Counted from the first letter of the stretch, positions 37,075 to 59,682 are shown. The stretch: 64,000 nt of DNA from an uncultured Chloroflexia bacterium (GCA_963712745.1 CAVQJC010000011.1:337241-401240), one strand, 5' to 3'. Notes: a model not told the origin generated them from the letters alone. Program-made: numbers and translations.

Positions 37075-38703
37075 ATGACGATGGCTACGATCACTGCCCG
37101 ACCGTCACTGCGGGAACGGATGGCGGACCCCGATACCTTCCTGACCATCGTCGAGCTGGTGCCCTGGCGAGGCGTGCTCGACGACGACCTTGGCCGTCGT
37201 GCGCGCACTGCAGCCGAGTCGCTGGCCGGTGACCCCGCCATCGACGCCATCAGCGTCACCGACAACGCCGGTGGCCATGCCATGGCCAGCCCGGACGTGC
37301 TCGGTCACGAGATCGCGGCACGCGGCAGTGAGGCCATCGTGCATGTCGCCTGCCGCGACCGCAACCGCAACGAGCTTCTGAGCATCGGCTGGCGGTTGGC
37401 TTCCGAGGGTCTGAACAACCTGCTCGTGCTCTCGGGCGACTACCCCACCGAGGGCTACCACGGCCTGGCTCAGCCGGTCTTCGACATCGACTCGGTGGTG
37501 CTCCTGCAGATGTACTCCGAGGTGGCGCGGGGTCAGTCTCCCATCGAAGACGTCCGCGGCCAGGGCGGAGGCGCGAGCGATATCGGGTGCCGCCCATTGC
37601 CGCTCTTCCTGGGCGCCGTCGTCAGCCCCTTCAAGCGCTTCGAACGAGAACTGGTTCCGCAGTATCAGAAACTCGAGCTGAAGATCCGTTCGGGCGCGGA
37701 GTTCATCATCGGCCAGGTCGGCTACGACGCGCGGCGGCAGGCCGAGCTGCTTCAGTGGATGACACTGCGCGGCTTGGAACGGCCGGTCCTGTCCAACATC
37801 TACCTGCTCACTCGGACGGTGGCGCGTATCTTCCACGCCGGCAAGGTCCCCGGCGTGTCACTGACCGATGAGCTCCTCGAGCTCTGTGAGAAGCAGGGCA
37901 GCAGCCCGGACAAGGGCAAGTCCTTCTTCCGGGAGTTCGCGGCCAAGCAGGTGGCGATCGCACGTGGGCTGGGGTGTGCGGGCGCCTACCTGGGCGGCAT
38001 CACCCGAGCCGAGGACGTGGGTGCCATCCGTGAGCTTGCTGATAGCTTCGGGCCCGAAGACTGGCACGCCTTCGCCCGTGAGATCCAGTTCTCGCCAGCC
38101 GACCAGTTCGAGCTCCTGGAGACCGATCCCCGGACCGGCTTGCCAACGGACAGGCTGGACCCGGCATACGCCCGATCACTCGAGCTGACGGCGCGTCGAG
38201 CCGCACGGCGCCACGTGCCCTGGACGTACAAGGTCAACCGCCTCGCTCACGACGCGGTCTTCGATCCCGAGGCCGTGCTATACCCTGCGGCCGGTCGCTT
38301 CTATTCGGCCGCCGAGCGCTGGCGCCTGGGCTGGCCGCTCCACGTCTTCGAGCAGGCCGTGAAGATCCCGCTGTACGACTGTCGCGACTGCGGCGACTGC
38401 TCGTTGCCGGACGTGGCGTATCTCTGCCCCGAGTCGCACTGCTCCAAGAACCAGCGCAACGGGCCCTGTGGCGGCTCGCATGATGGCGAATGCGAGGTCG
38501 CCGGGAAGTCATGCGTGTGGGCGCAAGCCTACGATCGTCTCAAGCCATACGGAGAGGAGGACGCCATCCTCCACCGTCCGATCGTCGTGGCCGACAACGC
38601 GCTGCGCCGGACGAGCGCGTGGGCCAATACATTCCTCGGCCGTGACCATGCGGCCGAGGACGGCGTTGCGGCGTCCCAGCCAATGCGGGCAGCTGCTCGC
38701 TAG
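37075..38703 (+). CDS. metF: Methylene-THF reductase MetF with fused C-terminal MetV-like Cys-rich domain (paralog 1)
   Basis: VTDN, HVACRDRN, LSGDYP and KIRSGAEFIIGQ. C-terminal CRDCGDC..CPESHCSKNQRNGPCGG..CEV..CVW. Confidence 0.88.
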   Translation: MTMATITARPSLRERMADPDTFLTIVELVPWRGVLDDDLGRRARTAAESLAGDPAIDAISVTDNAGGHAMASPDVLGHEIAARGSEAIVHVACRDRNRNELLSIGWRLASEGLNNLLVLSGDYPTEGYHGLAQPVFDIDSVVLLQMYSEVARGQSPIEDVRGQGGGASDIGCRPLPLFLGAVVSPFKRFERELVPQYQKLELKIRSGAEFIIGQVGYDARRQAELLQWMTLRGLERPVLSNIYLLTRTVARIFHAGKVPGVSLTDELLELCEKQGSSPDKGKSFFREFAAKQVAIARGLGCAGAYLGGITRAEDVGAIRELADSFGPEDWHAFAREIQFSPADQFELLETDPRTGLPTDRLDPAYARSLELTARRAARRHVPWTYKVNRLAHDAVFDPEAVLYPAAGRFYSAAERWRLGWPLHVFEQAVKIPLYDCRDCGDCSLPDVAYLCPESHCSKNQRNGPCGGSHDGECEVAGKSCVWAQAYDRLKPYGEEDAILHRPIVVADNALRRTSAWANTFLGRDHAAEDGVAASQPMRAAAR

Positions 38704-40411
38704 AACAGGCCGACCGGGCGTCCCTGCTCGTCGATGTCGACGTTCTCACCGGCAGGACGGCTGGGCAGGCCCGGCATCGTGCGCATGTCGCCCGCGAGCG
38801 GGTAGATGAAGCCCGCGCCCGCGGCCAGCTTGACCTCGCGGATGGGCACCCGGAAGCCGGACGGCCGGCCCAGCAGCGCCGGATCGTGCGACATCGAGAG
38901 GTGGGTCTTGGCCATGCACACCGGCAGGTGGCTGTAGCCCAGCCGGTCGTACTCGGCCAGGGCCTTGGCCGCGGCCGGCGCGAGGTCGATGCCGTCGGCC
39001 CCATAGACCTTCGTGGCGATGGTCTCGATCTTCTCGAGCAGCGGCATCGCGTCGGGGTAGAGCAGCCTGAACTCGGACGGCTCGGACGCCGCCTCCCACA
39101 CCGCCGCGGCCAGCGCTTCTGACCCGGCCCCGCCGTCGGCCCAGTGGGTGGTCACGACCGCATCGCGGGCGCCGGCTGCCAGCGCCACCTCGCGGATGAC
39201 CTCGAACTCCGAGGCGGCGTCACCCGGGAAGGCGTTGATGGCCACCACCACCGGCACGCCGTACTGGCGCACCAGCTCGATCTGGGCGGCGAGGTTCTGG
39301 CCACCCGCGCGCACCGCCTCGGGGTCCTCCGCCAGCAGCGCCGGGTCGAGCGGCTTGCCGGCCACGATGCGACCCACGCCACCGTGCATCTTCAGGGCCC
39401 GCACCGTGGCCACCACCACCGCGGCATCGGGCGCCATGCCCGAGGCGCGGCACTTGATGTCGAAGAACTTCTCTGCCCCCATGTCCGCGCCGAAGCCGGC
39501 CTCGGTGACGACGATGTCGCTGGTCGCCAGGGCGACCCGGTCGGCGAGGATGGAGCTGTTGCCATGGGCGATGTTGGCGAAGGGCCCGGCATGGACGAAG
39601 GCCGGCCCGCCCTCGAGGGTCTGCAGCAGGTTGGGCTTGATGGCATCGAGCAGGAGCACGGTCATGGCCCCGGCCACGCCCAGGTCCTCGGTCGTGACCG
39701 CTTTCCCCGACCGGTCGGTGGCGAGCACGATGCGACCCAGCCGCGCGCGCAGGTCGAAGACGTCGGTGGCGAGGGCCAGGATGGCCATGACCTCGCTGGC
39801 CACGGTGATGACGAACTCGCTCTCGCGCGGCACCCCGTTGACCTTGCCGCCGAGGCCGATGTTGACCTTGCGCAGGGCGCGGTCGCTGATGTCGACCACC
39901 CGCGGCCAGGTGATCGAATAGGGGTCGATGTCGAGCGGATCGCCATGGTGGAGGCTGTTGTCGAGGAAGGCGCTCGCGAGGTTGTGCGCGGCGCCGATGG
40001 CGTGCACGTCACCGGTGAGGTGGAGGTTGAAGTCCTCCATGGGGATGATCTGCGAATAGCCGCCGCCGGCGGCCCCGCCCTTGATGCCGAAGACCGGGCC
40101 CAGCGAGGGCTGGCGGATGGCGACCGCGGCCGTGTGGCCGATGCGGTTGAGACCCTGCACCACACCGACGGTGGTGGTGGTCTTGCCCTCGCCCAGCGGG
40201 GTCGGCGTGATGGCGGTCATGACCACGTACCGGCCGCGCGGGTTCTCGCGCTCGACACGTCTGAGCCCCTCGAGCGTGACCTTGGCCTTGGTCGCGCCGT
40301 AGGGTTCGATCTCATCGGGCCGCAGCCCGAGCTCGGCAGCGATGTCGGTGATGGGCCGGGGGGTGACCGAGCGGGCGATGTCGAGGTCGGTCAGGGCGGT
40401 CATGGATGGTC
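38698..40411. repeat. 1714-bp direct repeat, copy 2 (partner 8839-10552)
   Basis: Matches copy 1 at an offset of 29,859 bp in the same orientation. Confidence 0.92.
38700..40403 (-). CDS. fhs: Formate-tetrahydrofolate ligase (copy 2)
   Basis: Protein identical to 8841-10544. Its stop overlaps the convergent metF stop (CTAG 38700-38703). Confidence 0.97.
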   Translation of the reverse strand: MTALTDLDIARSVTPRPITDIAAELGLRPDEIEPYGATKAKVTLEGLRRVERENPRGRYVVMTAITPTPLGEGKTTTTVGVVQGLNRIGHTAAVAIRQPSLGPVFGIKGGAAGGGYSQIIPMEDFNLHLTGDVHAIGAAHNLASAFLDNSLHHGDPLDIDPYSITWPRVVDISDRALRKVNIGLGGKVNGVPRESEFVITVASEVMAILALATDVFDLRARLGRIVLATDRSGKAVTTEDLGVAGAMTVLLLDAIKPNLLQTLEGGPAFVHAGPFANIAHGNSSILADRVALATSDIVVTEAGFGADMGAEKFFDIKCRASGMAPDAAVVVATVRALKMHGGVGRIVAGKPLDPALLAEDPEAVRAGGQNLAAQIELVRQYGVPVVVAINAFPGDAASEFEVIREVALAAGARDAVVTTHWADGGAGSEALAAAVWEAASEPSEFRLLYPDAMPLLEKIETIATKVYGADGIDLAPAAAKALAEYDRLGYSHLPVCMAKTHLSMSHDPALLGRPSGFRVPIREVKLAAGAGFIYPLAGDMRTMPGLPSRPAGENVDIDEQGRPVGLF

Positions 40412-40427: not shown

Positions 40428-41321
40428 CTAGCTGGTACGAACGGACGGTGCGCCGACGGCGATGTGGTGGGTGGCCTGGTCTCGCGCTGCGCGCATGAGG
40501 TGGGTCAGGAGGATGGCGCTGGTGAGCGGGCCCACGCCGCCGGGCACGGGCGTGATGGCGGAAGCGACCTGCGAGACCGACTCGAAGTCGACGTCGCCGA
40601 CGAGCCCATCGTCGGTCACGTTGATGCCGACGTCGATGACGACCGCGCCTTCCTTCAGCATCTCGCCGGTGACGAGTCCGGCCCGGCCTGCGGCCACGAC
40701 CACCACGTCCGCCTCTCGCAGGACGGCTCCGAGATCGGGCGTGCGCGAGTGACACATCGTGACCGTGGCGTGCTCACGCAGCAGTAGGAGCGATGCCGGC
40801 TTGCCGATGACGTTTGAGCGGCCGACCACAGCGGCACGCGACCCTGCCAGCTCGATGCCCGAGTGCTTGAGCAGCTCGACCGAGGCGTGTGCGGTGGCCG
40901 GCAGGTAGCCCTCGTAGCCGAGCGCGAGCAGCCCGGCGTTGAGGGGGTGGATGCCGTCGATGTCCTTGCGCGGGTCGAGCGTGTCGAGTACGACGCGTAG
41001 CGGGATGCAATCGGGCAGCGGCTGCTGGACGATGATGCCGGCCACCTCGCGCTCCTGGCCGAGCGCGCCGATGGCGCGAGCCAGCTCCGTCTCGGAGCAG
41101 TCACCTTCGAGCTCCACGAGGCGGCCGGCCAGCCCGACGCGCTCGCAGCCATCGAGGATCTTGCGCAAGTAGACCAGCGACGGGGCATCGGCGCCTGCGA
41201 CGACGATGGCGAGCTCCGGCGCGTAGCCGAACTCCGCCTTGAACGCGACCACGTCAGCGGCCACGGTCTCGCGGATCTCAGCCGCGATGGGACCTCCCTT
41301 GAGCAGCTCGGCGGCCATCAA
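40428..41321 (-). CDS. folD: Methylene-THF dehydrogenase/cyclohydrolase
   Basis: GIIVQQPLP, KDIDG, GRSNVIGKP, IDVGIN and TPVPGGVGP. Confidence 0.95.
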   Translation of the reverse strand: MMAAELLKGGPIAAEIRETVAADVVAFKAEFGYAPELAIVVAGADAPSLVYLRKILDGCERVGLAGRLVELEGDCSETELARAIGALGQEREVAGIIVQQPLPDCIPLRVVLDTLDPRKDIDGIHPLNAGLLALGYEGYLPATAHASVELLKHSGIELAGSRAAVVGRSNVIGKPASLLLLREHATVTMCHSRTPDLGAVLREADVVVVAAGRAGLVTGEMLKEGAVVIDVGINVTDDGLVGDVDFESVSQVASAITPVPGGVGPLTSAILLTHLMRAARDQATHHIAVGAPSVRTS

Positions 41322-41345: not shown

Positions 41346-42383
41346 CTACGCGAATCTGCCCGCGCGGAAGGCCTCGATGAACTGCATACCGAAGGCGTCC
41401 TCGCCAGTGAGCATGGCCTTGGCCAGCGTATAGGCCTCCGAATCGCGATCGGGGTCCAGGGCCGCCTGCACGTCGGCGACCGGGTCGATGATGCCGCTGT
41501 CCTGGCCGGCCTGGACGCAGAGGTCGAGGAAGACGTCGCTGATGATGCGGCGGGCCGGCAGGCCGAAGCTGATGTTGCTGACGCCGCCGGTGATGTGGAT
41601 CTCTTCGCCGAAGCGCTCGCGGATGGTGCTCACCGCGTCCAGGTAGGCCTGCCCGGCCAGGGGGTCCACGCCGATGGGGATGACCAGCGGGTCGACGTAG
41701 AGGGAGTCGGCCGGCAGCCCCATCTCGTAGGCCAGGCCGATGATCTCCTCGGCCCGTTCGATGCGGTCCTGGGTCCCTGACGGCATCGATCGGCCGGTGC
41801 ACGAGAGCACGACCGGCGTGCCCCGTTCCTTGACCAGGTCCAGCACCTCCGGGCGCTCGACATTGGCGGAGTTGACCATGGGCGTGGCGCCGCCGGCCCA
41901 GGCCGGGTCGATGGCCTCGAGGCCCGCCTTGAGCACCGCGGCGTCGGACGAGTCGATGGAGAGTGGGACCGACGAAGCCGGTCCTACGGCTGCCACGAGC
42001 CACTTCATGGCGTCGAGCCGGCCGACGACCTCCGGGCTGATCTCGTCCACGTTGAGGTCCAGATAGTGGGCTCCGCCGGCGATCTGCCGCTCCGCCATCC
42101 AGGCCACGTAGCGCGCGGCCACGTCGGCGTCCGGGCCACCGGCCAGGCCATCGCGGACCGCGGCCATCACATGCTTGATGCGGTCGCTGGTGGTGAACTC
42201 CTTGGACTCGAGGATCGACTCCGGCAGCGGCACCCAGGACTCGCCGTCACCGTCGGGGAAGCGCACGCCGGGGCGGCCGTCGGGCGCCACGCCGCCGCGG
42301 ATGCCTTCGCGCTTGACGACTCGGCTGCAGTGGATGTTCTCGCCGATGATGATGAAGTCCTGGGCGCCCACGGCGTCGGTCAC
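41346..42383 (-). CDS. Pterin-binding methylcorrinoid:THF methyltransferase (AcsE/MT2-like)
   Basis: IIGENIH, YLDLNVD, LSIDSS, VNS, YVDP and GGVSNISFGLP. Confidence 0.85.
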   Translation of the reverse strand: MTDAVGAQDFIIIGENIHCSRVVKREGIRGGVAPDGRPGVRFPDGDGESWVPLPESILESKEFTTSDRIKHVMAAVRDGLAGGPDADVAARYVAWMAERQIAGGAHYLDLNVDEISPEVVGRLDAMKWLVAAVGPASSVPLSIDSSDAAVLKAGLEAIDPAWAGGATPMVNSANVERPEVLDLVKERGTPVVLSCTGRSMPSGTQDRIERAEEIIGLAYEMGLPADSLYVDPLVIPIGVDPLAGQAYLDAVSTIRERFGEEIHITGGVSNISFGLPARRIISDVFLDLCVQAGQDSGIIDPVADVQAALDPDRDSEAYTLAKAMLTGEDAFGMQFIEAFRAGRFA

Positions 42384-43876
42384 GAGTCGTCTCCTTCGGT
42401 GCTGGCGGTGGAACGGCCGTAGTGGTCGCGGCCGAGGAACGTGTTGGCCCAGGCGCTTGTGCCGCGAAGGGCGTTGTCCTGGAGTACGGGCTCGCGTTCC
42501 AGCATGGTCTCAGCCTCGCCGTAGGGGCGGAGGCGATCGTAGGCGACGGCCCAGACACAGGGTTTGCCGGGCACCTCGCACTCTCCCTCGAGCGACCCGC
42601 CACAGGGGCCGTTGCGCTGGTTCTTGGCACAGGCGCCTTCGGGACACTGGTAGGCGATGTCCGGGAGCGAGCAGTCGCCGCAGTCCTGGCAGTCGAACAT
42701 GGGGATCTTGACGGCCTGCTCGAAGACGTGAGCCGGCCACATCAGGTGGGCTGACTCGAGGCGTTCGTAGGCACCACGGGCCACGGAGAACCCACGCGAT
42801 CCGGGGTCGAAGGCGAGGTCGTGGACGAGCCGGTTGAAGCGGTACTTGAGCGGTACCCGCTTGGTCCTGGTCGGCTTGGTGGGCTGACCCGAGGCCAGCT
42901 GCGGAACGTCGCCCTGCTCGTAGAGCCGATACGGTGCCGGCTCGGGGAAGTGGATGTCCGGGAGCAGGGCCTGCCACTCGGACCGGTAGTCGTTAGCCAT
43001 GCTCAGGACCTTGTCGATCTCGGCCACGTTGCGCTGGCCGGCGATGTAGGCACCGGCGAAGCCCAGGCCACGCACGACCGCGACCTGCTTAGCCGCGAAT
43101 TCGAGGAATGCGGCACGGCCCTTGTCGTCCGCGGCCGCCCGCTCATCGGCCCAGGCCTTGAGTTCGTCACTAAGGCGGATGCCGGGCACGCCGTTGGTGT
43201 TGAAGACCCGCGCCACGCCCTTGCTCAGGATGTAGACCGAGGCCATCAGCGGGACCGGCCTCGGCTGGCTCGTGTTCCAATGCAACAGCTCCGACCAGCT
43301 GCGCGTGTCGTAGCCGACTTGCGCGATGGCCAGGTCCGCCCCGGAGCGGACCTTGAGCGCCAGCTTGAGGTACTGCGGCACGAGGTCCGCTTCGACGGCC
43401 TTGAAGGGATTGACCGCGCAGCCGACGGTGAAGCGAGGCCCGGACTTAGAGGCCTCGCGCATCATCGAGATGAGCCCCACCGAGTCGATATCGAAGACCG
43501 CGCGCGAGCGCCCCTTGAAGCCCTCCCTGGGGTAGTCGCCGCTGAGCGCCAGGGCGTTGGTCAGGCCCGAGCTGGCCAGTCCGTAGACGGTCGACTGCAG
43601 GGCAGCCCGGCTGCGGTCGCGACAGGCCAGGTGGACGACGCACTCGCCACCCATCTGCTGGATGGCCTGGCCCAGGGTGAGTGGGCCCAGGCGCACGAAG
43701 CCGCCGGCATTGTCGGTCACGGTCAGGGCCGTGATGCGGGGATCGGCGGACAGCTCGCGGGCGGTCTCGCGGTGGCGCTCACCGGCCTCGTCCTGGAGCG
43801 GGCCGGCCCAGGGCACCAGCTCCACGAGCGTGGTGCTGCCATCGTTGCGCGCGAGGGAGTCTGCGAAGGCGGTCAT
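42380..43876 (-). CDS. metF: Methylene-THF reductase MetF with fused MetV-like domain (paralog 2)
   Basis: Same architecture as 37075-38703 (TDNAGG, HLACRDR, SGDYP, CQDCGDC..KNQRNGPCGG). Probable start ATG 43876. Confidence 0.88.
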   Translation of the reverse strand: MTAFADSLARNDGSTTLVELVPWAGPLQDEAGERHRETARELSADPRITALTVTDNAGGFVRLGPLTLGQAIQQMGGECVVHLACRDRSRAALQSTVYGLASSGLTNALALSGDYPREGFKGRSRAVFDIDSVGLISMMREASKSGPRFTVGCAVNPFKAVEADLVPQYLKLALKVRSGADLAIAQVGYDTRSWSELLHWNTSQPRPVPLMASVYILSKGVARVFNTNGVPGIRLSDELKAWADERAAADDKGRAAFLEFAAKQVAVVRGLGFAGAYIAGQRNVAEIDKVLSMANDYRSEWQALLPDIHFPEPAPYRLYEQGDVPQLASGQPTKPTRTKRVPLKYRFNRLVHDLAFDPGSRGFSVARGAYERLESAHLMWPAHVFEQAVKIPMFDCQDCGDCSLPDIAYQCPEGACAKNQRNGPCGGSLEGECEVPGKPCVWAVAYDRLRPYGEAETMLEREPVLQDNALRGTSAWANTFLGRDHYGRSTASTEGDDS

Positions 43877-43915
43877 CGGTCCTGCGTCCTGTGGGAGCTG
43901 CACGGCTCGGGGCTG

Positions 43916-43952
43916 ACGGTACACCCTGAGGCTCCCACGTCAACCGGTTGAC
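43916..43952 (-). promoter_or_regulatory. LacI-type operator GTCAACCGGTTGAC (43939-43952) over a sigma70-like promoter for metF-MT-folD-fhs
   Basis: Perfect 14-bp palindrome; the minus strand reads TTGACG-16 nt-TACCGT. Confidence 0.8.
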
Positions 43953-44039: not shown

Positions 44040-45297
44040 CTAGCGATACTCGTCGACGGCCTCGAACATGGCCTCGATGTTCTCCGGCGGGATGTCCGGC
44101 AGCATGTTGTGGGCGGTGGCGAAGACGAAGCCGCCGCCTGGCGCGAAGGTCTCGATGTTGCGCCGGACGTGCTCGCGGACCTCCTCTGGTGTGCCCTTGG
44201 GCAGGACCCTGCGGGTGTCCGCGCCGCCGCCCCAGAAGGTGATCTCCGCGCCGAACTCCGCCTTGAGCCGCTCCGGCTCCATGTTCGCTGCCGAGATCTG
44301 GACCGGGTTGAGGATGTCGACGCCCGTCTCGATGATGTCCGGCAGCAGGTCATACAGCGAGCCGCACGAATGCAGGAACGTCTTCATCGAGCTGCGCTCG
44401 TGGACATAGGCGTTGAGCGCTGCGTGCCGCGGCTTGAAGATGGTCCGGTAGGTGTCGGGCGACATCAGCGGGCCGTTGTCCATGCCCAGGTCGTCGCCGA
44501 AGCGGACGATGTCGACGATGTCGCCGACCGACTCGATGACGTGGTCGAGCGTGGCGAAGTGGAGCTCCAGCAGCGCGTCGAGCAGGCGCTCGACGTTGGC
44601 CTGGTCGACGACGAGGTCCATGAGGAAGTTGTCGATGCGCCGCAGGAAGGTGCCCCACTCGAAGAGGTTGCAGCCGACCACCACCATGAGCGCGCGATCG
44701 GTCGACGCTCGCAGCGCCAGCGTCTGCCTGCGCAGTGTCCCCCAGAAGCCGTCGTCGCCGGCGTGGTCCCAGGGGCTGTGCACGAGGCCTGACCAGAGCA
44801 CCAGCGGCATGACCTCAGCAAGGCTGGAGAGGTCGTCCGGGTAGCCGTCCACATAGGGGAAGTAGGTCTGATCGAAGAAGGCCGCACCACGTGGCATCGA
44901 CGCGATGCGCAGGCCGTCAGCGGTGAAGGCGTCGAGGGCGCCGTTCTCCTGTCGGACCGGGTCGAACCAGGCCGGGTATCTCGGTCTCGATACCGCTGGG
45001 CAGCGTCAGCGGCTTCCAGTCGGCGTCGCTGGTGTCGAAGGTCCGTCCGATGTCCATCACGTCGATGCGCAGCCGGTCGAGCAGTTCGTCAGACGGCTGA
45101 GCCAGCTGCTGGACCACGTCGTACACCCGTGTGTGCTGGTCGGCCAGGCCCAGGTGCCGCACGAAGTTGGCGTGAGCGACCGCGGAGATGCCCGAGCTCG
45201 GAGTCGAACCCAGGTCCACCGGCAATCGGTCTGGCTCCCGGTGTTCGATACTCGCGAGGACTCGCTGGCGCGGTGTCATCGGATCGATGGTTGACAC
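44040..45297 (-). CDS. UroD/MtaA-family methyltransferase, with a +1 frameshift at ~44979
   Basis: MTPRQRVLASIEHREPDRLPVD, GDDLG, FLHSCG, LNPVQ and GGGFVFATAHN. SD GGGAGG precedes GTG 45297. Confidence 0.85.
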
Positions 45298-45544
45298 GGA
45301 CGACCTCCCTGCTCGATATGGCTGCCAGTATCGTTCGTATCCCGTTCGAGGACAGTGCGGAGGGCCACGGAGGGCGAGCTCATGACCACCGCCGTCACTC
45401 GCCCGGCCGCACGCGACCCTCGCTTCGGACTGGTCGAGCCTGCCGAGGTGGACGGGGGCCGCCAGCGCGTGCCACAGCGGCCGCGCCATCTCCGATCTGC
45501 GATGAGCGTCGATCTCTTCGAGCGTGTCCGCCTGGGGCGGGCCC

Positions 45545-45853
45545 CGCGGCGAACCCGACCCCGGACGCGAGGTTCCCCTATGCCCCCGCACCGCCGGCCC
45601 TGCTGGAGCGGGCGCTCGCCATCAAGGCCATCCGTGTTCGCCACGGCGTGCCCCTTCGTGCGGCGGCGCTCCGGTTCGTTCTAGGCCACCCGCTGGTGGT
45701 CTCGGTGACAGCCGGCGTGCGCTCCATCGCGCACCTCGACGATGCCTTGGCCAACCTGCGCCACCCCATCCGGCCACGCTCTGGGACGAGTTGCGTGATG
45801 AGGGTCCGCTGCCGGACGGCGTGCCGACCCCGGGGAGCCGGCCACAGCCCTGA
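45545..45853 (+). pseudogene. Aldo/keto reductase C-terminal remnant
   Basis: YAPAPPALLERA..HGVPLRAAALRF..HP.VVSV..GVRS, then LWDELR..G.LP in another frame. No recognisable catalytic N-terminal part. Confidence 0.6.
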
Positions 45854-45878
45854 CCGACCCCAGCCCTGGAGGGCGTGG

Positions 45879-47719: not shown

Positions 47720-47736
47720 GTCCGGACCTCCTCCCG

Positions 47737-48873: not shown

Positions 48874-48986
48874 GTCGCCGTACCTCGCGTGGGCATCTGC
48901 ACCTCCTGGCGTCGGACTCCGAGCGTCATCTCGATCGCCCGGGCGCTCCCGCGGTCGGGAGCGTTGGCCACTCGCCGATGCGGGCA

Positions 48987-49024
48987 TGTATAGCAACCGG
49001 GAGGCGGCAAGTCAACCGGTTGAC
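48987..49024 (-). promoter_or_regulatory. Operator GTCAACCGGTTGAC (49011-49024) over the promoter for oxidoreductase-corrinoid-UroD
   Basis: Perfect palindrome; the minus strand reads TTGACT-17 nt-TATACA. Confidence 0.8.
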
Positions 49025-50188: not shown

Positions 50189-50227
50189 GTCAACCGGTTG
50201 ACGTTGGCGTCCGCGGCGGGCTACCGT
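50189..50227 (+). promoter_or_regulatory. Operator GTCAACCGGTTGAC (50189-50202) over the promoter in the lacI/isomerase divergent region
   Basis: Perfect palindrome followed by TTGACG-18 nt-TACCGT. Confidence 0.82.
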
Positions 50228-52558: not shown

Positions 52559-52597
52559 GTCAACCGCTTGACTCGACGGCTGCGGAGCGACTACCGT
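52559..52597 (+). promoter_or_regulatory. Operator GTCAACCGCTTGAC (52559-52572, one mismatch) over the promoter of the lactonase-mutarotase-ABC operon
   Basis: Near-palindrome followed by TTGACT-18 nt-TACCGT. Confidence 0.78.
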
Positions 52598-52648: not shown

Positions 52649-53500
52649 GTGATCGTTGACAGCCACCAGCACTTGTGGGATCTCGGTGAGGTCGAGTACC
52701 CCTGGTTGGTGCCCGAATACGGGCCGATCTATCGCTCCTTCACGCCCGACGAGCTTGAGCCGCAGCTTGCCGCTGCCGGCATCGATCGCACCGTGCTGGT
52801 GCAAGCGGCCAACTCCTATGCCGACACGGACTCCATGTTGCGCCACGCAGAGGCATACGAGTGGATCGGTGCGGTCGTGGGTTGGGTCCCGCTCGAGGAT
52901 GCGCACGAAGCGGCGCGCGTCCTCGATGAACGTTACCTGCGGAGCCCGTGGTTCAAGGGCGTGCGCCACCTCAACCACGAAGAGGCTGACCCTGACTGGC
53001 TTGTGCGCCCGGCCGTCATCGACGGGCTCAAGGTGCTGCAGGAGCGCGGCGTGCCGTATGACGTCGTCGCGGTCTTCCCGCTGCATCTGGGGCATGTGCC
53101 GGCACTGGCCCAGGCCTGCCCGAAGCTGCCCATGGTCATCGACCATCTGGCCAAGCCGCCCATCGCTAGTGGTGACTACGACGCCTGGAAAGCGGACCTG
53201 CGCGCGGCCGCGGAGTATCCCAACGTCCACGCCAAGCTCTCGGGCCTCAACACGGCCGCCGATTGGGAGACCTGGACCGGGGCCGACCTGGTGGAGTCGA
53301 TCGGCTACGCGCTCGAGGTCTTCGGCGCCGAGCGCCTGATGTTCGGCAGCGACTGGCCAGTGGCCGTCCTCGCCGGCGACTACGCCGAGGTCTGGGCCGA
53401 GACCAACCGCGCGCTCGACGAGCTGGGCGTGCAGGCGAGCGACCGCGCTGCCATCCTCGGTGGGACGGCGGCCGGGTTCTACTCGGTGGAGGCGGCGTGA
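52649..53500 (+). CDS. Amidohydrolase-2 family sugar lactonase (L-fuconolactonase-like)
   Basis: DSHQHLW, VLVQA, GVRH, IDHLAKP, KLSG and MFGSDWPV. Confidence 0.88.
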   Translation: MIVDSHQHLWDLGEVEYPWLVPEYGPIYRSFTPDELEPQLAAAGIDRTVLVQAANSYADTDSMLRHAEAYEWIGAVVGWVPLEDAHEAARVLDERYLRSPWFKGVRHLNHEEADPDWLVRPAVIDGLKVLQERGVPYDVVAVFPLHLGHVPALAQACPKLPMVIDHLAKPPIASGDYDAWKADLRAAAEYPNVHAKLSGLNTAADWETWTGADLVESIGYALEVFGAERLMFGSDWPVAVLAGDYAEVWAETNRALDELGVQASDRAAILGGTAAGFYSVEAA

Positions 53501-53823
53501 TGAAGCGGTACGGACAGCTGATCGGGCTGAAGCCCGAGCACTACGACGAGTACGTCAAGGCCCATGCGGACGTCTGGCCAGGAGTGCTGGCCAAGATCTC
53601 CGAGTGCAACATCCGCAACTATTCGATCTTCCACCGCATGGGCCAGCTCTTCGCCTACTTCGAGTATGTCGGTGACGACTTCGACGCCGACATGCAGCGG
53701 ATGGCCGATGACCCCGAGACCCAGCGCTGGTGGGACTGGATGATGCCCATGCAGGAACCCCTCGCCGATCGTGACGAAGGGGAGTGGTGGAGTGACATGG
53801 AGGAGGTATTCCATACGGATTGA
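53500..53823 (+). CDS. L-rhamnose mutarotase-family protein
   Basis: YVKAHADVWP, NYSIF, LFAYFEY, WW and EEVFH. Confidence 0.9.
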   Translation: MKRYGQLIGLKPEHYDEYVKAHADVWPGVLAKISECNIRNYSIFHRMGQLFAYFEYVGDDFDADMQRMADDPETQRWWDWMMPMQEPLADRDEGEWWSDMEEVFHTD

Positions 53824-53911: not shown

Positions 53912-55285
53912 GTGCGCGACACCATGACCATCAAGGGCGGGCGCCTGGCGATCCCGCTGGCGGCAGCTCTTGCCGCGACCGCGCTGGGCGCGGGCACCGC
54001 GCTGGCCCAGGACGAGCCGGCCTTCGCCGGGCTGGACAAGGACCTGACCGGCGTCAATCTCAAGATGGCGGCCATCGGCGGCATCCAGTACGACGGGATG
54101 TACGCCTGGATCGACAAGTTCGAGGAGGAGACCGGCGCGACCGTCGACATCGTTTTCAAGGGCGACGGCTTCGAGATCGACCAGTATCAGAAGCTCAACT
54201 TCGGCGGCGGCACGGTGGACTTCGACGTCGCCTGGAACCACACCAGCTTCATGTCGCAGTACACGAACTTCATGGAGCCACTCAACGACTACTTCACCGA
54301 GGAGGAGCTCGCGGCCTTCTCGCCGAGCATCGTCGAGGCGGCTACCATCGATGGTGACCTGCAGCTGATCCCGCGCCACGCCGACATCAGCTCGCTCTGG
54401 TATCGCAAGGATCTCTTCGAGGACCCGGACCTGCAAGCCAAGTTCGAGGAGGCCTACGGCTATCCGCTGGCGCCACCCGAGACGCTGGACCAGATGTACG
54501 ACATGTCCCAGTTCCTCGTGGGCGAGGGCGTCGTCTCGTTCGGGACCCAGTTCGCGGGCGAAGAGGAAGCTCTGGCGGGCCGCTTCTACGAACTCCTCTT
54601 CGCCAACGGCGGTGACTACTTCGACGCCGACCTTAACCCCACCTTCGACTCGGAAGCCGGCGTCCTGTCGGCCCAGTGGATGCGGGACCTCTACGCCAAT
54701 GGCCTGATCCCGTCGGATACGACGACACTGCGTTGGGACGGCGTCTTCCAGAACTTCTGCAACGGTGACGTGGCCTTCTACCTCGAGTGGTATGGCTTCT
54801 ACGGCACCGCGCAGGACCCGGAGACCTGCCCCGAGGTAGCCGGCAACTTCGGCATGGCCCGTGGTCCGGAGGGAGCCGGTGGCGTTCACACCGGTTGGGC
54901 CGGCGCCCACGCCTTCTCGGTCACGAAGGCCTCAGAGAACAAGGAAGCCGCTGTGCAGCTCATCAAGTTCCTGACGTCGGAGGCGGTCGAGCTCGACGAG
55001 ACGATGAAGCAGGGCGTCCTGCCGGTTCGCGCCGATGTGTCAGAGCGCGTGATCGCGGCGAACTCCGACACCGGCGTGCCACTTGACGCCGAGCGCTGGG
55101 AACTCGCCAACGTCCAGATCAGCGAGGACTTCCGAACCCCGCCGCTCTTCGCCGACTGGATCAGCTTCACCGACGAGTGGTATCCCACGCTCCAAGGCAT
55201 CATCCTCGGCGACGCGAGCGTCGAGGACGGCCTGGCCAAGGGTGTGGCTGACACGGTCGAGCTACTGGATAGTCTCGGCTACTAG
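53912..55285 (+). CDS. Sugar ABC transporter substrate-binding protein (CUT1)
   Basis: Signal peptide ending ALA-Q, LWYRKDLF and KEAAVQLIKFLTS. Precedes two permeases. Confidence 0.9.
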   Translation: MRDTMTIKGGRLAIPLAAALAATALGAGTALAQDEPAFAGLDKDLTGVNLKMAAIGGIQYDGMYAWIDKFEEETGATVDIVFKGDGFEIDQYQKLNFGGGTVDFDVAWNHTSFMSQYTNFMEPLNDYFTEEELAAFSPSIVEAATIDGDLQLIPRHADISSLWYRKDLFEDPDLQAKFEEAYGYPLAPPETLDQMYDMSQFLVGEGVVSFGTQFAGEEEALAGRFYELLFANGGDYFDADLNPTFDSEAGVLSAQWMRDLYANGLIPSDTTTLRWDGVFQNFCNGDVAFYLEWYGFYGTAQDPETCPEVAGNFGMARGPEGAGGVHTGWAGAHAFSVTKASENKEAAVQLIKFLTSEAVELDETMKQGVLPVRADVSERVIAANSDTGVPLDAERWELANVQISEDFRTPPLFADWISFTDEWYPTLQGIILGDASVEDGLAKGVADTVELLDSLGY

Positions 55286-55373: not shown

Positions 55374-56336
55374 ATGACGACGGACGCGGCGCGCCTCGCG
55401 AGCCCACCTCAGGGCCCGCCAGGCGACTCGGCCTTGCAGCGACTCAGGAGGCGGAACTGGTTTCCCTACCTGATGGTGCTGCCGGCGCTTCTCATCGTGC
55501 TTGCCGTCGTCGTCTACCCGATGGCCTACTCGCTATACGTGTCCTTCACCCCGTTCCACCTGCTGCGGCCTGACACGACCTCCCAGTTCGTGGCCGAGAA
55601 CATGTTCGACAACTACGCGCGCCTGGCGCGGGACGACGTCTTCTGGCGATCGGTCTGGAACACCGTCCTGTTCATGGTCGTGACCGTGAACGCGTCCATC
55701 GTCATCGGCTTCGGGATGGCCATGATGCTGGCTCGCATGACGTTCGCCCTGGGTCCCGCACGCGTCCTACTCATGATCCCGATGATGTTCGCGCCGGTCC
55801 TCATCGGCTTCCAGTTCTCGTGGTTCTTCAACGCCACGGTCGGCCTGGTCAACAACGCTCTGGGCACCCTCGGGCTCATCACCGAGCCGATCGCCTGGCT
55901 CGTGGAAGAGCCGAACGGGATGTTCTCCATCATGGTGGCGACCATCTGGATGACTGTGCCGGTCGTGACCATCGTGCTGCTGGCTGGACGCCTCTCCCTG
56001 TCTGAGGAGCTCTACGACGCCGCGTCCGTCGACGGGGCTTCGGTCTATCAGCGGATGCGACACATCACCATCCCGCAGATGCGGCCGTTCTTCGTCATCG
56101 TCATGGTGCTTCTGTCCCTGGACATCGCCAGGGCATACGACATCGTCCGCCTGATGACCGACGGCGGACCGGCGCATCGCACCGAGCTCATCTGGACATA
56201 CGTGGGCCAGCTGGCGATTCGGAACTCTCAATTCGGTATGGCGTCGGCGATGTCGATGGCCGGTGTCGTATTGGGCGTTGCCTTCACGTTCATCCTCTTC
56301 CGGCAGATGATGCAGCTACGCAAGGACTTGGGATGA
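55374..56336 (+). CDS. Sugar ABC transporter permease
   Basis: Multiple TM helices; EAA-like ELYDAASVDGAS and MTDGGP. Confidence 0.92.
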   Translation: MTTDAARLASPPQGPPGDSALQRLRRRNWFPYLMVLPALLIVLAVVVYPMAYSLYVSFTPFHLLRPDTTSQFVAENMFDNYARLARDDVFWRSVWNTVLFMVVTVNASIVIGFGMAMMLARMTFALGPARVLLMIPMMFAPVLIGFQFSWFFNATVGLVNNALGTLGLITEPIAWLVEEPNGMFSIMVATIWMTVPVVTIVLLAGRLSLSEELYDAASVDGASVYQRMRHITIPQMRPFFVIVMVLLSLDIARAYDIVRLMTDGGPAHRTELIWTYVGQLAIRNSQFGMASAMSMAGVVLGVAFTFILFRQMMQLRKDLG

Positions 56337-57241
56337 CAACTTCCGCACCGGGGCGCCGTGCGGCCCGCCCCGCCCCGCGCGCGACGGCACGGCGTCGCAT
56401 CCACTGGCGTGACGTCGGGGCGAACTGGCTGGCCCTGACGGTCTTGTTCGTGGCTGCGCTGCCGGCGATCTGGATCATTGTGACGGCCTTCCGACCGAAC
56501 CTCGAGGTGAATGCCTCTCCGCCAATCTGGATCCCGAGGGAGCTCACGCTTGAGGCCTTCGAGTCGCTCTTCGGACTGAACCCGGAGACCATGTCGGGCG
56601 TGCCAGTGATGAGCTATCTCACGAACTCGGTATCGGTGGCGTTCCTCGCGATGGCGCTCTCTGTGCCCATCGGCACGGCTGCGGGCTACGCCTTCTCGCG
56701 CTTCGACTTCGTCGGCAGTCGCATCCTTCTGCTCGTCCTGCTCCTGACCCGCGCGGTTCCCGGCGTCGCCTTGAGCCTGCCGCTCTTCCTGCTCATGCGG
56801 AACCTTGGCCTCGTCAACACCGTCCACGGTCTGGCGTTCGTGTACATGGCCCTGAACATCCCCTTCACGGCCTGGCTCATGGACGGCTTCTTCCGACGCA
56901 TCCCGCGCGAGCTCGATGACGCGGCCTACGTCGACGGCGCCAGCCACTGGCAGACGTTCTGGAAGATCGACCTGCCGCTGGCCTTGCCGGGCCTCGGCGC
57001 CGCCGCGGTCTTCGCGTTCCTGGCCGCCTGGAACGAGTACCAGATTGCCTCCATCCTGACGAAGACCCCTGCATCCAAGACGTTTCCCGTGGGCCTGTCC
57101 GACTTCACCGGCCAATTCTTGGTCGACTGGCGCGGCATGGCGGCGATGTCCGTGCTGATGATGATCCCGGCCATCTTCTTCGTGCTGGCCATGCAGCGGA
57201 GCCTGACCAAGGGCCTGACGTTCGGAGCAGTGAAGGGCTGA
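56333..57241 (+). CDS. Sugar ABC transporter permease
   Basis: IPRELDDAAYVDGAS, AWNEY and GLTFGAVKG. Confidence 0.92.
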   Translation: MTTSAPGRRAARPAPRATARRRIHWRDVGANWLALTVLFVAALPAIWIIVTAFRPNLEVNASPPIWIPRELTLEAFESLFGLNPETMSGVPVMSYLTNSVSVAFLAMALSVPIGTAAGYAFSRFDFVGSRILLLVLLLTRAVPGVALSLPLFLLMRNLGLVNTVHGLAFVYMALNIPFTAWLMDGFFRRIPRELDDAAYVDGASHWQTFWKIDLPLALPGLGAAAVFAFLAAWNEYQIASILTKTPASKTFPVGLSDFTGQFLVDWRGMAAMSVLMMIPAIFFVLAMQRSLTKGLTFGAVKG

Positions 57242-57242
57242 G

Positions 57243-58330
57243 ATGAGCAACTGCCTACTCCCCTAAGTGGCGCATCGAGGCCGGCGCTGGCCGAGACCTG
57301 CGCATCGGCCTCATCGGCTGTGGTGGCATCGTCTCCGGCGCCCACCTGCCGGCGTACCAGGCGGCCGGCCTGCAGGTGACGGCCGTCTTCGACGTCGACC
57401 ATGAGAAGGCTCGCCAAGGTCGCCGCTGACTTCGACATCCCGGCGATCGCGTCCTCGGCCGAGGAGCTCGCGCATCGCGCGGATGTGGACATCGTGGACG
57501 TGGCCGTGCTGCCCTGGGTCCAGCCCCAGATCGCGGGCATCGTGGCGGAGGCGGGCAAGCACATGCTCTGCCAGAAACCACTGGCCATGGACTATCCCAC
57601 CGGCGTAGCCATCGTCGAGACGGCTGAGCGCGCGGGGGTGCAGCTGGCGGTGAACCACCAGATGCGTTGGGACGCCGGCATCGCTGCCTCGCGCGATCTC
57701 GTCGCGCAAGGCGCCCTGGGCCGGATCACCGAGGCCCAGATCCAGGTCTCGGTCTCCACGCCCCTGCACATGTGGGCCTGGATCGCCGAGATGCCGCATC
57801 TCGATATCAAGGTCCATAGCACCCACTACCTCGATGCCTTGCGCTCGATCCTGGGTGACCCGGTGTGGGTCACGAGCATCCACGGCCGCTATCCGGAGCA
57901 GGCGCCGGTGGTCGGTGAGACCGTGACCAAGACCGTGCTCGAGTACGCTGACGGCGTCCAGGCGCTGGTGGCCACCAACCACTACAACGAGCACGGCACG
58001 CCCTACGCCGAGTTCCGCATCCTTGGCACCGAGGGCACGTTGCAGGGCACCATCGGCCTGATGTACGACTATCCGAACGGACGGCCGGACACGCTCTCGC
58101 TCTACCGCGAAGGAGCGGAGGTGCAGGCCTTCGAGTTCGACACGATGTGGCTGCCTGATGCCTTCCTCGGCCCGATGAGCGACCTCATGGATGCGATCGC
58201 CAGCGGGCGTGAGCCCACGACAGACGGGCGCAAGATGCTGGCCACGCTGGCCATCGGCGAAGCGGCCTACCGTTCCGCGGAGGAGCGACGCAGCGTTCGC
58301 TTGACCGAGATCACCGGCCTCGTCCCATGA
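57243..58330 (+). CDS. Gfo/Idh/MocA-family oxidoreductase, with frameshifts at ~57249 and ~57412
   Basis: The Rossmann motif RIGLIGCGGI..AHLPAY lies in another frame upstream of the 57401 ORF (CQKPLA, HSTHYLD). Confidence 0.82.
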
Positions 58331-59682
58331 GCGACGGGGTCAGACCGCCCGGCGCCATCTTCTCGATGCTGCACCGGGCCTTCGGTGATACCGAGATGGA
58401 GGCCATCTTCTCGGAGACCGTGACCGTGGAGTCGTGGCTGCAGACAGAGGCGGCGTTGGTCCGCGCCCAGGCTGCGGTGGGCGACATCGACCCGGAGCGG
58501 GCGGAGGCGATCGCCAACGCCTGTCGCCTCGAGAACATCGACCTGCCGGCGCTGTGGGCCGAGATGGCCAACGTGGGCTATCCCATCCTGCCCCTGGTCC
58601 GCCAGCTGACCGACCGCCTCCCCGAATCGGTGCGTGGCTCGCTCCACTACGGCGCCACCACCCAGGACATCATGGATACCGGTCTGAGCATCCAGCTGGC
58701 GCGGGCCATCGCGCGGCTCCTGTCGCTCACGGGCGAGCTCGGCGATGCCCTCGCCCGGCAGGTCGAGGTCCACGCCGACACGGTCATGGCCGGCCGCACG
58801 CACGGGCAGCAAGCCGTGCCCACGACCTTCGGGGCCAAGCTGGCCACGTACCTGCGCCAGTGCACCCGCTTGCGTGCCGATCTGGCCGCCCTTCCGGCGA
58901 GCTGTTGCCTGGTGAGCCTGCATGGGGCCGCGGGCACATCGGCCGGCCTGGGTCCCAAGGCCCACCAGATCAGGGCTGAGGTAGCGCGCCAGCTGGACTT
59001 GCGCACGTCTCCGGGCCCCTGGCACGTCACTCGTGACCCCCTGGCCGCCTTCGCGGCCACCTGTGCCAGGGCCGCGGCCATCTGTGCCCGCCTGGGGCGT
59101 GAGGTCATCGATCTCTCGCGTACCGAGATCGGCGAGGTCAGCGAGACGGCTGGACACCACCGCGGCGCCTCCTCGACGATGCCGCAGAAGGCCAACCCCA
59201 TCGATTCGGAGGCCATCGTGGGCCTCGCCGCGAACGCCGAGGCTGCGGTCGGCAGCATGTACCGCGCCATGGAGGCAGGCCACGAGCGCTCGGCGGGGGA
59301 GTGGCAGATCGAATGGCACGGCCTGCCCCAGGTGGCGGTGCTGTCCGCGGGCTGCCTGGCCATCGCGGTCCGGGTCGTGGCTGGGCTCACCGTCGACCCC
59401 GAGCGCATGGCTGCCAACCTCGACCTGGAGCAGGGCCGCACGCTTGCCGAGGCCTACATGTTCCAGCTGGCGCCCGAGCTCGGCCGCGAGCAGGCCCACG
59501 ACCTCGTCTACCAGGCTGCGCTCGCCTCCAAGGCCGGTCGGGTCGAGCTTCGCGAGGCCCTCGTCCAGATCTCGGCCGATGCGGACAGGATGGCCGAGAT
59601 CAGCCCTGCCGACTACACCGGCGGGGCACGCGATGAGGCCATCAGCGCCGTCGCGGAGTGGGTCGCCGGATCAGGGGCCTGA
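58327..59682 (+). CDS. Fumarase/aspartase-superfamily lyase (adenylosuccinate lyase/PcaB-like)
   Basis: HYGATTQD, GRTHGQQAVP, SSTMPQKANP and HERS. Confidence 0.88.
   Translation: MSDGVRPPGAIFSMLHRAFGDTEMEAIFSETVTVESWLQTEAALVRAQAAVGDIDPERAEAIANACRLENIDLPALWAEMANVGYPILPLVRQLTDRLPESVRGSLHYGATTQDIMDTGLSIQLARAIARLLSLTGELGDALARQVEVHADTVMAGRTHGQQAVPTTFGAKLATYLRQCTRLRADLAALPASCCLVSLHGAAGTSAGLGPKAHQIRAEVARQLDLRTSPGPWHVTRDPLAAFAATCARAAAICARLGREVIDLSRTEIGEVSETAGHHRGASSTMPQKANPIDSEAIVGLAANAEAAVGSMYRAMEAGHERSAGEWQIEWHGLPQVAVLSAGCLAIAVRVVAGLTVDPERMAANLDLEQGRTLAEAYMFQLAPELGREQAHDLVYQAALASKAGRVELREALVQISADADRMAEISPADYTGGARDEAISAVAEWVAGSGA

Follow-up and report, generated by a model that had tools for sequence, protein, structure and literature searches.

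O-methylated sugars occur commonly in the glycans of plants, algae and microbes, among them 2-O-methyl-fucose and -xylose, 3-O-methyl-rhamnose, 4-O-methyl-glucuronate and 6-O-methyl-galactose. Methylation blocks the ordinary catabolism of these sugars and, to our knowledge, only oxygenases are known as demethylases of O-methyl sugars. In the part of PMC6292453 that was available, cytochrome P450 demethylases of 6-O-methyl-D-galactose are described from marine Bacteroidota. The locus described here lies in a 64,000-nucleotide stretch of DNA from an uncultured Chloroflexia bacterium (GCA_963712745.1 CAVQJC010000011.1:337241-401240; G000:C11:337241-401240 in the numbering used below), termed the window. 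It joins genes for sugar uptake and oxidation to genes for corrinoid-dependent methyl transfer and one-carbon metabolism. The genes present, the operator that they share, their synteny, the assigned families and folds, and the joint occurrence with RACo and corrinoid proteins point, with a probability of about 0.55, to a LacI-controlled regulon for the uptake and O2-independent, corrinoid-dependent O-demethylation of a methylated aldose, possibly a 6-deoxyhexose. Such a route would bear on the handling of O-methyl sugars in anoxic sediments, soils and guts.

The closest described systems contain proteins of the uroporphyrinogen decarboxylase (UroD) superfamily. According to the available part of PMC13222342, the methyltransferase I (MTI, here MT1) CdmB is a UroD-superfamily protein of ~430 amino acids (aa) with a TIM barrel and extensions after the first strands, and is grouped with MtvB, OdmB, VdmB and MtoB. 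The preprint PMC10418091, as far as its text was available, reports MtaA-like proteins of non-methanogens in type 1 mlp clusters and proposes methyl-sulfur or methyl-selenide roles for them. Floodplain metagenome-assembled genomes (MAGs) of Limnocylindria contain corrinoid methyltransferase genes for methylated amines, and the available part of that study has no methoxy-type systems annotated in any MAG (PMC11264602). The full-text literature, with subscription journals and supplements outside the scope, gave no report of a corrinoid-dependent methyl-sugar demethylase and no paper with both "rhamnose mutarotase" and "uroporphyrinogen decarboxylase".

The sugar and methyl genes of the locus are linked by an operator. 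A perfect 14-nt palindrome, GTCAACCGGTTGAC, was found in the divergent intergenic region between lacI and the gene of a TIM-barrel protein. It recurs exactly at two other places, and a fourth site, GTCAACCGCTTGAC, has one mismatch (O1 to O4, Table 1). All four are intergenic, each ahead of one sub-operon: lacI/TIM-aminotransferase; Gfo1-CoP-UroD (Gfo1, first Gfo/Idh/MocA oxidoreductase; CoP, corrinoid protein); MetFV-pterin-binding methyltransferase-FolD-Fhs; and lactonase-mutarotase-ABC. Allowing up to three mismatches, 8 matches occur against 2.78 expected, a number reached in 0 of 100 shuffles. At one mismatch or fewer, the whole 4.2-Mb genome has 7 sites, 4 of them at this locus. Sites stand at equivalent positions in the genomes G001, G005 and G010 and in the loci L017-L023, and counterparts of O4 with one mismatch keep the same place in G001, L018 and L022. 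Neither of the two RACo copies of the genome sits behind an operator. As the palindrome is common to four units, the sequence itself is direct evidence for a single regulon of sugar and methyl/one-carbon genes under a putative LacI operator. Given this common operator and the synteny in relatives, the grouping is more than chance. The sequence-only reading had tied its proposal to the joint induction of sugar and methyl genes, and the shared operator answers this point as far as a sequence can.

The three remaining genomic sites lie ahead of a LacI paralogue with an aldo/keto reductase, of an aminotransferase/SDR/lactonase-type cluster on contig C1, and of 2-oxoacid dehydrogenase E1 genes at the end of contig C14. 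In C1:441001-458000 (L097), a second LacI paralogue with the same operator adjoins an aldo/keto reductase, and fragmented aminotransferase, SDR, PTE, permease, amidohydrolase and hydantoinase A/B genes surround it. Because so many genes around the paralogue are fragmented, the consensus quality of this stretch appears low; it is possibly a paralogous member of the regulon. At the contig end C14:70045-72140 (L098), the operator stands ~100 nt upstream of the E1-alpha/E1-beta genes of a 2-oxoacid (acetoin-type) dehydrogenase, with a DUF1638 gene nearby. Other E1/E2 genes are found beside UroD1 in L033 and beside the cluster in G010.

The source MAG comprises 4.2 Mb in 20 contigs (84.6% complete, 5% contamination, ~69% G+C), and the genes of the window were annotated with Pfam and NCBIfam profiles. 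All the genes listed in the sequence-only reading were recovered with Pfam: the CUT1 parts, the mutarotase, the lactonase-like protein, two Gfo/Idh/MocA oxidoreductases, the TIM-barrel protein, two UroD-family proteins (UroD1 and UroD2), the corrinoid protein, the pterin-binding methyltransferase, MetFV, FolD and Fhs. The RACo-type activator that it had placed nearby does stand within a carbon monoxide dehydrogenase/acetyl-CoA synthase (CODH/ACS) cluster. Beyond that list, the locus carries a class-III aminotransferase, a Lyase_1 protein and an SDR. The full CODH/ACS cluster (CooC, AcsC/D, RACo, AcsE and a first MetFV) occupies about 25.4-38.7 kb, directly upstream of the locus, and is itself preceded by formate dehydrogenase, a second Fhs and a V-type ATPase.

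Candidates for the four components of a corrinoid O-demethylase are present here: UroD-superfamily proteins for MT1, CoP, a pterin-binding protein for methyltransferase II (MTII, here MT2) in the regulon, and RACo. CoP carries the DxHxxG motif (GDLHDIGKN), and the Gfo1 stop overlaps the CoP start or stands within 26 nt of it. The pterin-binding methyltransferase, in the unit behind O1, is 29% identical to the AcsE of the window, and its PRK07535 match of 172.6 bits falls short of the 259-bit cut-off. The second MetFV is 48% identical to the first (37075-38703), and the second RACo copy lies at C11:319147, ~18 kb before the window. The two Fhs genes (38700-40403 and 8841-10592), 30 kb apart on one strand, align over 1718 nt at 99.94% identity with a single indel; a recent duplication, a gene conversion or an effect of the assembly could explain this.

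The alignments of 61 UroD2 sequences (A1) and 24 UroD1 sequences (A2) are related by homology (hhalign probability 99.3%), and a quick tree places the two in separate well-supported clades beside other UroD paralogues. Invariant residues are H309-x-C311, H396, C209, E213 and D268/D269 in UroD2 (A1), and H281-x-C283 and D363-H364 in UroD1 (A2), where C326 is kept in at least 90% of the sequences. In the alignments, the His-x-Cys of each family falls on LHICGN of MtaA. At the position of the PGCGI cysteine, which we take to be the third zinc ligand of MtaA, UroD2 has His396 and UroD1, through the A1-A2 alignment, His364. Both AlphaFold models are confident (pLDDT 95.2 for UroD2, 87.5 for UroD1). 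In each, the predicted fold is a TIM barrel in which a beta-rich insertion follows the first strands, and the two proteins exceed MtaA in length by 50-80 aa. With the UroD2 model, Foldseek places MtaA first (4ay7/4ay8, E 3e-13), followed by true UroDs and MetE; the UroD2 profile weakly matches CdmB (9rui, E 3.9e-4).

Neither UroD reaches a curated NCBIfam cut-off. Against the soluble coenzyme M (CoM) methyltransferases MtaA/MtbA/MtsA, UroD2 scores 57.7 and UroD1 33.3 bits with TIGR01463 (cut-off 235 bits), and 48.3 and 36.8 bits with NF040654 (cut-off 400 bits). Pfam coverage is partial, at 76-82 bits over profile positions 129-346 (UroD1) and 160-346 (UroD2). The true HemE copies on C6 and C17 of the same genome reach 197-220 bits over positions 4-345, a full-length family match that UroD1 and UroD2 do not show. 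The source genome has 22 UroD matches in all. Public names of the family are only "uroporphyrinogen decarboxylase" or "hypothetical", and 6082 of the 8000 protein clusters scored reach E 1e-30 or better. The complex prediction for UroD1 with UroD2 scored 0.00, which gives no verdict and counts for neither side.

The survey of neighbourhood conservation that had been proposed as a check found synteny within the genus and recurring sugar and methyl neighbours across phyla. In G001, the order runs from the SDR through the TIM-barrel gene and then, divergently, LacI-Gfo1-CoP-UroD1-UroD2-FolD-Fhs; MetFV2 and the pterin-binding methyltransferase are absent from that cluster. In G010, a TIM-aminotransferase-lyase-SDR group stands beside an aldo/keto reductase (AKR), an MR_MLE dehydratase and a CUT2 ABC system, and UroD1 and UroD2 are apart. 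The cluster is modular within the genus.

Orthologues of UroD2, 57-66% identical, occur in 80 loci across many phyla: Anaerolineae, Caldilineaceae and Acidobacteriota; Verrucomicrobiota, Kiritimatiellae, Victivallales, Planctomycetes, Spirochaetes, Clostridia and Bacteroidales; Calditrichota, Omnitrophota, Sumerlaeota and one Thermoplasmata archaeon. The family is present in the cultured isolate Sporanaerobium hydrogeniformans (L091). As lower bounds, many loci being short, the 80 loci contain a rhaM-family gene in 42, a UroD1 orthologue in 29, a CUT1 binding protein in 28, CUT1 permeases in 16, CUT2 sugar ABC parts in 19-26 and an MR_MLE dehydratase in 11; a corrinoid protein is the immediate neighbour in 24. 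Recurring arrangements are RhaM-UroD1-UroD2 triads and UroD2-CoP pairs behind sugar ABC, MR_MLE and SDR genes. Pfam annotation of the neighbours in 22 loci identified GH29 fucosidases, a GH95-like domain, GH127, RhaA, FGGY, DHDPS and bacterial microcompartment (BMC) shell proteins, with LacI or AraC regulators; some loci add creatininase-family, Gfo, TIM or E1/E2 genes. In more distant Chloroflexota (L048, L052) the order Lyase_1-Amidohydro_2-Gfo-SDR-TIM-LacI-UroD2-RhaM-UroD1-SBP-permeases is repeated (SBP, substrate-binding protein), and L061 has UxaC among its neighbours. The chances are evenly balanced that UroD1/UroD2, with a rhaM-family partner and CoP, form an unrecognised multi-phylum family of cobalamin-dependent carbohydrate methyl-ether demethylases.

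Sugar-type loci of Anaerolineae and Spirochaetes (L033, L041, L043, L054, L069) have up to five UroD paralogues each. Among them are two conserved short clades (346-390 aa), one of which has an orthologue in G000 at C1:141819; the two clades could be MT2 enzymes. A creatininase-family gene lies between UroD1 and UroD2 or the SBP in L033, L052 and L054.

The presence of an activator follows that of UroD2. RACo was found in 15/15 UroD2-bearing genomes against 1/14 control genomes and, overall, in 20/20 UroD2-bearing genomes tested. Stand-alone corrinoid proteins of ~220 aa occur in 5/5 of the UroD2 genomes tested that have no CoP near UroD2. An even draw of 121 Verrucomicrobiota gave 6 genomes with UroD2 (E 1e-120 or better) and 39 with RACo, with a 6/6 overlap. 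When the centre genome, selected because it has UroD2, is set aside, 5/5 fall among the 38/120 with RACo (hypergeometric p ~0.003), and these co-occurrence counts and the p value overstate the support, as related genomes are not independent. The frequency of RACo-type activators in the sample (39/121) is of interest in itself; therefore, corrinoid methyltransferase systems look far commoner in Verrucomicrobiota than textbook physiology suggests.

The nature of the substrate is addressed by the sugar genes. The nearest solved relatives of the CUT1 binding protein take maltose, trehalose or sulfoquinovosyl-glycerol. The best NCBIfam match of the Amidohydro_2 protein is L-fucono-1,5-lactonase (NF052480), at 198.2 bits and below the 400-bit cut-off. 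The rhaM-family protein reaches PF05336 and scores 53.9 bits for the L-rhamnose mutarotase YiiL (TIGR02625), below the cut-off of 99.6 bits, and is therefore a member of the family and not an equivalog. A mutarotase together with a lactonase-like enzyme makes an aldose likelier than a cyclitol or inosamine, and the fucose/rhamnose neighbour genes point to 6-deoxyhexoses; 4-O-methyl-glucuronate, methyl-galactose and methyl-xylose are less favoured alternatives, for which the UxaC of L061 is an example of a fitting neighbour. The creatininase-family copy of L052 has a sub-threshold match to IolN, the 3-dehydro-scyllo-inosose hydrolase. A cyclitol was ranked below an aldose, as the mutarotase-family gene is the commonest partner. 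Of the O2-independent demethylation of a methylated carbohydrate that the sequence-only reading had proposed, the link between sugar and methyl/one-carbon genes is thus strengthened by the operator, the cross-phylum neighbours and RACo, and the cyclitol or inosamine variants are less favoured than an aldose.

From the gene families we infer the following sequence of events. The methylated sugar would be imported by the CUT1 ABC system and its anomers equilibrated by the rhaM-family protein. UroD1 and/or UroD2 would then act as MT1 on the methyl sugar. A Lewis-acid metal would be bound at their His-x-Cys...His site and would polarise the ether oxygen, in the way that zinc acts on methanol in MtaB; MtaB carries out a zinc-assisted methyl transfer to Co(I) from an unactivated aliphatic C-O bond. 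MT1 would hand the methyl group to the Co(I) of CoP, and the pterin-binding methyltransferase, as MT2, would carry it on to tetrahydrofolate (THF). The RACo-type activator would re-reduce Co(II). Methyl-THF might either be oxidised to formate by the co-regulated MetFV, FolD and Fhs with a gain of ATP, or be used for acetyl-CoA via the adjacent AcsE/CFeSP/ACS of the CODH/ACS cluster. The demethylated sugar would be oxidised by a Gfo/Idh/MocA dehydrogenase, and the lactone opened by the Amidohydro_2 enzyme. As a speculation, Gfo1 may oxidise the carbon beside the methoxy group, making an enolate the leaving group.

Several points weigh against this demethylation pathway. An unactivated alkyl methyl ether is chemically harder to cleave than an aryl methyl ether, and members of the Gfo, Amidohydro_2 and Lyase_1 families are also known from pathways of aromatic ring cleavage. 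The lactonase, the mutarotase and the Gfo proteins, like the UroD proteins, do not reach curated cut-offs. No corrinoid protein lies within the available DNA of 56 of the 80 UroD2 loci. UroD2 adjoins an MttB-family gene in L082 and L066, an arrangement that would also fit an MT2 role, and its identity of 57-66% across phyla would suit an enzyme with a universal acceptor. Finally, UroD1 (twice), UroD2 and Gfo2 are out of frame as assembled.

The frame breaks could mean that the system is a decaying relic in this genome, with UroD1, UroD2 and Gfo2 as true pseudogenes and an AKR fragment marking a rearrangement. Four breaks fall in ~21 kb, and the two UroD genes account for three. UroD1 has single-base insertions at 46921 and 46659 (DNA alignment to G001; tblastn matches in three frames), and UroD2 has one at 44977, judged against intact same-genus orthologues (415-425 aa in G001, G004, G005 and G010). 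In Gfo2 the frame changes near 57414-57419, with the N-terminal GxGxxG part in the other frame; the idea that the breaks are confined to the UroD genes was consequently dropped. An insert of 597 nt (45283-45879), confirmed by identical contigs, separates UroD1 from UroD2 and contains an AKR remnant with a sub-threshold PF00248 match of 22.8 bits. On the other hand, a 218-nt contig of the public run X1, otherwise identical, is without the extra base at 44977. This is the only one of the four breaks that an independent contig contradicts: no public-run contig passes over 46921, 46656-46660 is covered only by ~90% identical relatives, and Gfo2 is outside the stretch compared. Contig C1 of the same assembly has many fragmented genes, and sister long-read MAGs are broken elsewhere (Fhs in five pieces in G005; UroD2 split in G006, G009, G013 and G021). 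On these three grounds, the four frameshifts are probably consensus errors of the assembly. As the operators and all other genes are intact too, a relic is unlikely.

Improbable is an ordinary aryl methyl-ether O-demethylase, in which the UroD proteins, CoP and the pterin-binding methyltransferase would take the methoxy group of methoxylated phenolic glycosides, e.g. rhamnosides, and the sugar genes the glycone. All the characterised MTI relatives named in the available part of PMC13222342 (MtvB, OdmB, VdmB, MtoB) act on methoxylated aromatics or haloalkanes. The 22 UroD matches of the genome are typical of methoxydotrophs and, with the enzyme families shared with aromatic catabolism, fit such a system. 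However, neither UroD reaches a curated methyltransferase family, and the match to CdmB is weak. The transporters are of the CUT1/CUT2 sugar types, the regulators are LacI/AraC, and fucosidases and genes of rhamnose/fucose catabolism lie nearby; the annotated loci showed no glycosidase-plus-aromatic pathway.

Improbable as well, and ranked lower, is that UroD2 (perhaps also UroD1) is of the MT2 type and passes a methyl group from a methyl-corrinoid to THF or a thiol, or performs both half-reactions as MtsA does, with a donor other than a sugar. In structure and in sequence alike, the closest match is the MT2 enzyme MtaA, whose zinc motif corresponds to the His-x-Cys; UroD2 stands beside MttB and CoP in L082 and beside MttB in L066, and the high cross-phylum identity agrees with this role. 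Yet UroD2 and CoP are the sole methyltransferase parts among sugar ABC, MR_MLE and SDR genes in at least nine loci (L024-L026, L029, L031, L032, L037, L038, L047), and the regulon already holds a pterin-binding MT2. Moreover, the extra length and beta-rich insertion of both proteins resemble the MTI CdmB, and the rhaM-family gene is adjacent in 42 of the 80 loci. A corrinoid-independent role in sugar catabolism, e.g. as decarboxylases with the proximity of CoP in the genus being secondary, is very improbable: the loci without CoP and the rank of true UroDs as next-best structural matches would fit it, but RACo in 20/20 genomes, stand-alone corrinoid proteins in 5/5, CoP as immediate neighbour in 24 loci and the invariant MtaA-type His-x-Cys speak against it.

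Table 1. Features of the locus and of its surroundings (positions within the window)
Feature	Position	Strand	Remarks
RACo-type reductive activator	31674-33812	+	PF14574, PF17651, PF17650; inside CODH/ACS cluster
Fhs, copy 2	38700-40403	-	PF01268, 829.7 bits; last gene of one-carbon sub-operon
FolD, methylene-THF dehydrogenase/cyclohydrolase	40428-41321	-	PF02882 + PF00763
Pterin-binding methyltransferase, candidate MT2 (methyl-corrinoid:THF)	41346-42383	-	PF00809, 75 bits
MetF fused to MetV-like C-terminal domain, copy 2 (MetFV2)	42380-43924	-	PF02219 + PF12225
Operator O1, GTCAACCGGTTGAC	43939-43952		exact; between UroD2 and MetFV2; same place in G005, G010
UroD2, UroD-superfamily methyltransferase, candidate MT1	44040-45279	-	PF01208
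Aldo/keto-reductase remnant in 597-nt insert	45495-45770	+	64% identical to AKR residues 269-362, G010
UroD1, UroD-superfamily methyltransferase, candidate MT1	45879-47068	-	PF01208 on C-terminal piece; three-frame reading
Corrinoid protein (CoP), cap + Rossmann B12-binding domain	47087-47740	-	PF02607 + PF02310
Gfo/Idh/MocA oxidoreductase 1 (Gfo1)	47737-48996	-	PF01408 + PF22725; heads CoP-UroD unit
Operator O2, GTCAACCGGTTGAC	49011-49024		exact; between lacI stop and Gfo1 start; kept in G001, G005
LacI-family regulator	49044-50108	-	PF00356, PF13377, PF00532
Operator O3, GTCAACCGGTTGAC	50189-50202		exact; lacI/TIM intergenic; kept in G001, G005
Xylose-isomerase-like TIM-barrel protein (AP_endonuc_2)	50287-51144	+	PF01261; ribosome-binding site + ATG read
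Class-III (omega-type) aminotransferase	51148-52521	+	PF00202, 283 bits
Operator O4, GTCAACCGCTTGAC	52559-52572		one mismatch; between aminotransferase and lactonase-like gene
Amidohydro_2 protein, L-fuconolactonase-like	52649-53500	+	PF04909
rhaM-family (L-rhamnose mutarotase-like) protein	about 53506-53823	+	PF05336, 114.6 bits
CUT1 binding protein	53912-55285	+	PF01547, PF13416
CUT1 permeases, two	55383-56336 and 56333-57241	+	PF00528
Gfo/Idh/MocA oxidoreductase 2 (Gfo2)	57256-58330	+	PF01408 + PF02894
Lyase_1 protein, PcaB/adenylosuccinate-lyase-like	58327-59682	+	PF00206; NF006554 347 bits, below cut-off of 595 bits
SDR oxidoreductase	59691-60455	-	PF13561; synteny with cluster in G001 + G010
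433-aa protein without family	62596-63897	-	recurs near UroD2 elsewhere

Some further features of the locus and its surroundings deserve mention. No ABC ATPase gene accompanies the CUT1 uptake genes of the locus. In the 64-kb window, Rfam at gathering thresholds gave 0 matches, a cobalamin riboswitch not being found; a promoter scan gave 0 promoter-like sites and terminator-like sites stayed at shuffle level, two results that are uninformative for this organism. A sequence search of solved structures returned no relative of the TIM-barrel protein, and the nearest solved relatives of the aminotransferase are amine and omega transaminases.

Next to the SDR, a 331-aa protein without Pfam or NCBIfam family (60530-61525, +) is syntenic with it in G001 and G010 and adjoins E1 in G010. 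It is followed by a short Meth_synt_2 protein of 344 aa (61565-62599, +) that resembles "core" MetE, and the 3' end of this gene overlaps that of the 433-aa protein convergently by 4 nt. The 433-aa protein has full-length orthologues, 61-70% identical, in L064, L083, L084 and L090, and an ESM Atlas score of 0.99 to clusters called "putative URO-D". Against the UroD2 alignment A1 its hhalign probability is only 1.4-1.5%, and a profile search of solved structures gave nothing relevant; it is possibly a very divergent UroD-like protein, unconfirmed and kept as a lead only. At 7479-8435 (-), a 318-aa frame with the C-terminal half of a UroD domain and a partial B12-binding domain adjoins Fhs copy 1 and formate dehydrogenase; it may represent either a fusion like CmuA or one more gene with a broken frame. 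The A-like and B-like parts of the V-type ATPase share one frame of 1201 codons without a stop between them (20140-23745, +), which could be a fusion or a lost stop.

If the demethylation of methylated aldoses is confirmed, it would add a new class of substrate, aliphatic rather than aryl ethers, to the B12-dependent methyltransferases, and would supply methyl groups from a new source to acetogenesis, to the formation of methanethiol or to methanogenic cross-feeding. Anaerobic and microaerobic glycan degraders would use O-methylated plant, algal and bacterial sugars without oxygenases and pass the methyl group to folate-bound one-carbon metabolism. A Limnocylindria-like lineage would have wired this module, via one LacI operator, to methyl-THF oxidation or the Wood-Ljungdahl branch. 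Thousands of genes now labelled "uroporphyrinogen decarboxylase" would also be explained.

The sugar side of the locus resembles the non-phosphorylative oxidation of L-fucose and L-rhamnose, as a rhaM-family protein, a fuconolactonase-like Amidohydro_2 enzyme and a dehydrogenase stand in one unit, to which relatives add MR_MLE, SDR and DHDPS genes. It differs from that pathway by scores below curated cut-offs, by the lack of a dehydratase in the window and by a Gfo/Idh/MocA protein in place of the SDR dehydrogenase. The proposed purpose, removal of a methyl ether that blocks sugar catabolism, is shared with the P450 demethylases (PMC6292453, available part). Those enzymes are O2-dependent monooxygenases that release formaldehyde, with an unrelated fold and cofactor. 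Like the mlp clusters, the UroD1/UroD2 loci are widespread bacterial clusters of UroD-superfamily and corrinoid proteins; the available text of that preprint has no rhamnose, sugar, mutarotase or carbohydrate (PMC10418091).

MtaA has the nearest solved fold, with the His-x-Cys aligned. It is, however, an MT2 acting on a thiol, its partner MtaB has another fold, and no CoM metabolism is expected here. With the chloromethane dehalogenase CdmBCA of Acetobacterium dehalogenans, the locus shares a UroD-superfamily MTI with extensions, a corrinoid protein and an MTII. CdmB has no metal and a hydrophobic haloalkane channel, whereas UroD1 and UroD2 keep the invariant His-x-Cys...His (PMC13222342, available part). 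The component set is likewise that of the aryl O-demethylases, namely MtvABC of Moorella thermoacetica, Odm/Vdm of A. dehalogenans and MtoABCD of Methermicoccus and Archaeoglobus, as described in the available part of the same source: a UroD-superfamily MTI, a DxHxxG corrinoid protein, a pterin-binding MTII and RACo, with the methyl group passing to folate and on to the Wood-Ljungdahl pathway. In contrast to these systems, the UroD proteins of the locus form separate clades without a curated family, their context is one of sugar genes under a LacI operator and not an aromatic one, and the leaving group would be a sugar alkoxide instead of a phenolate.

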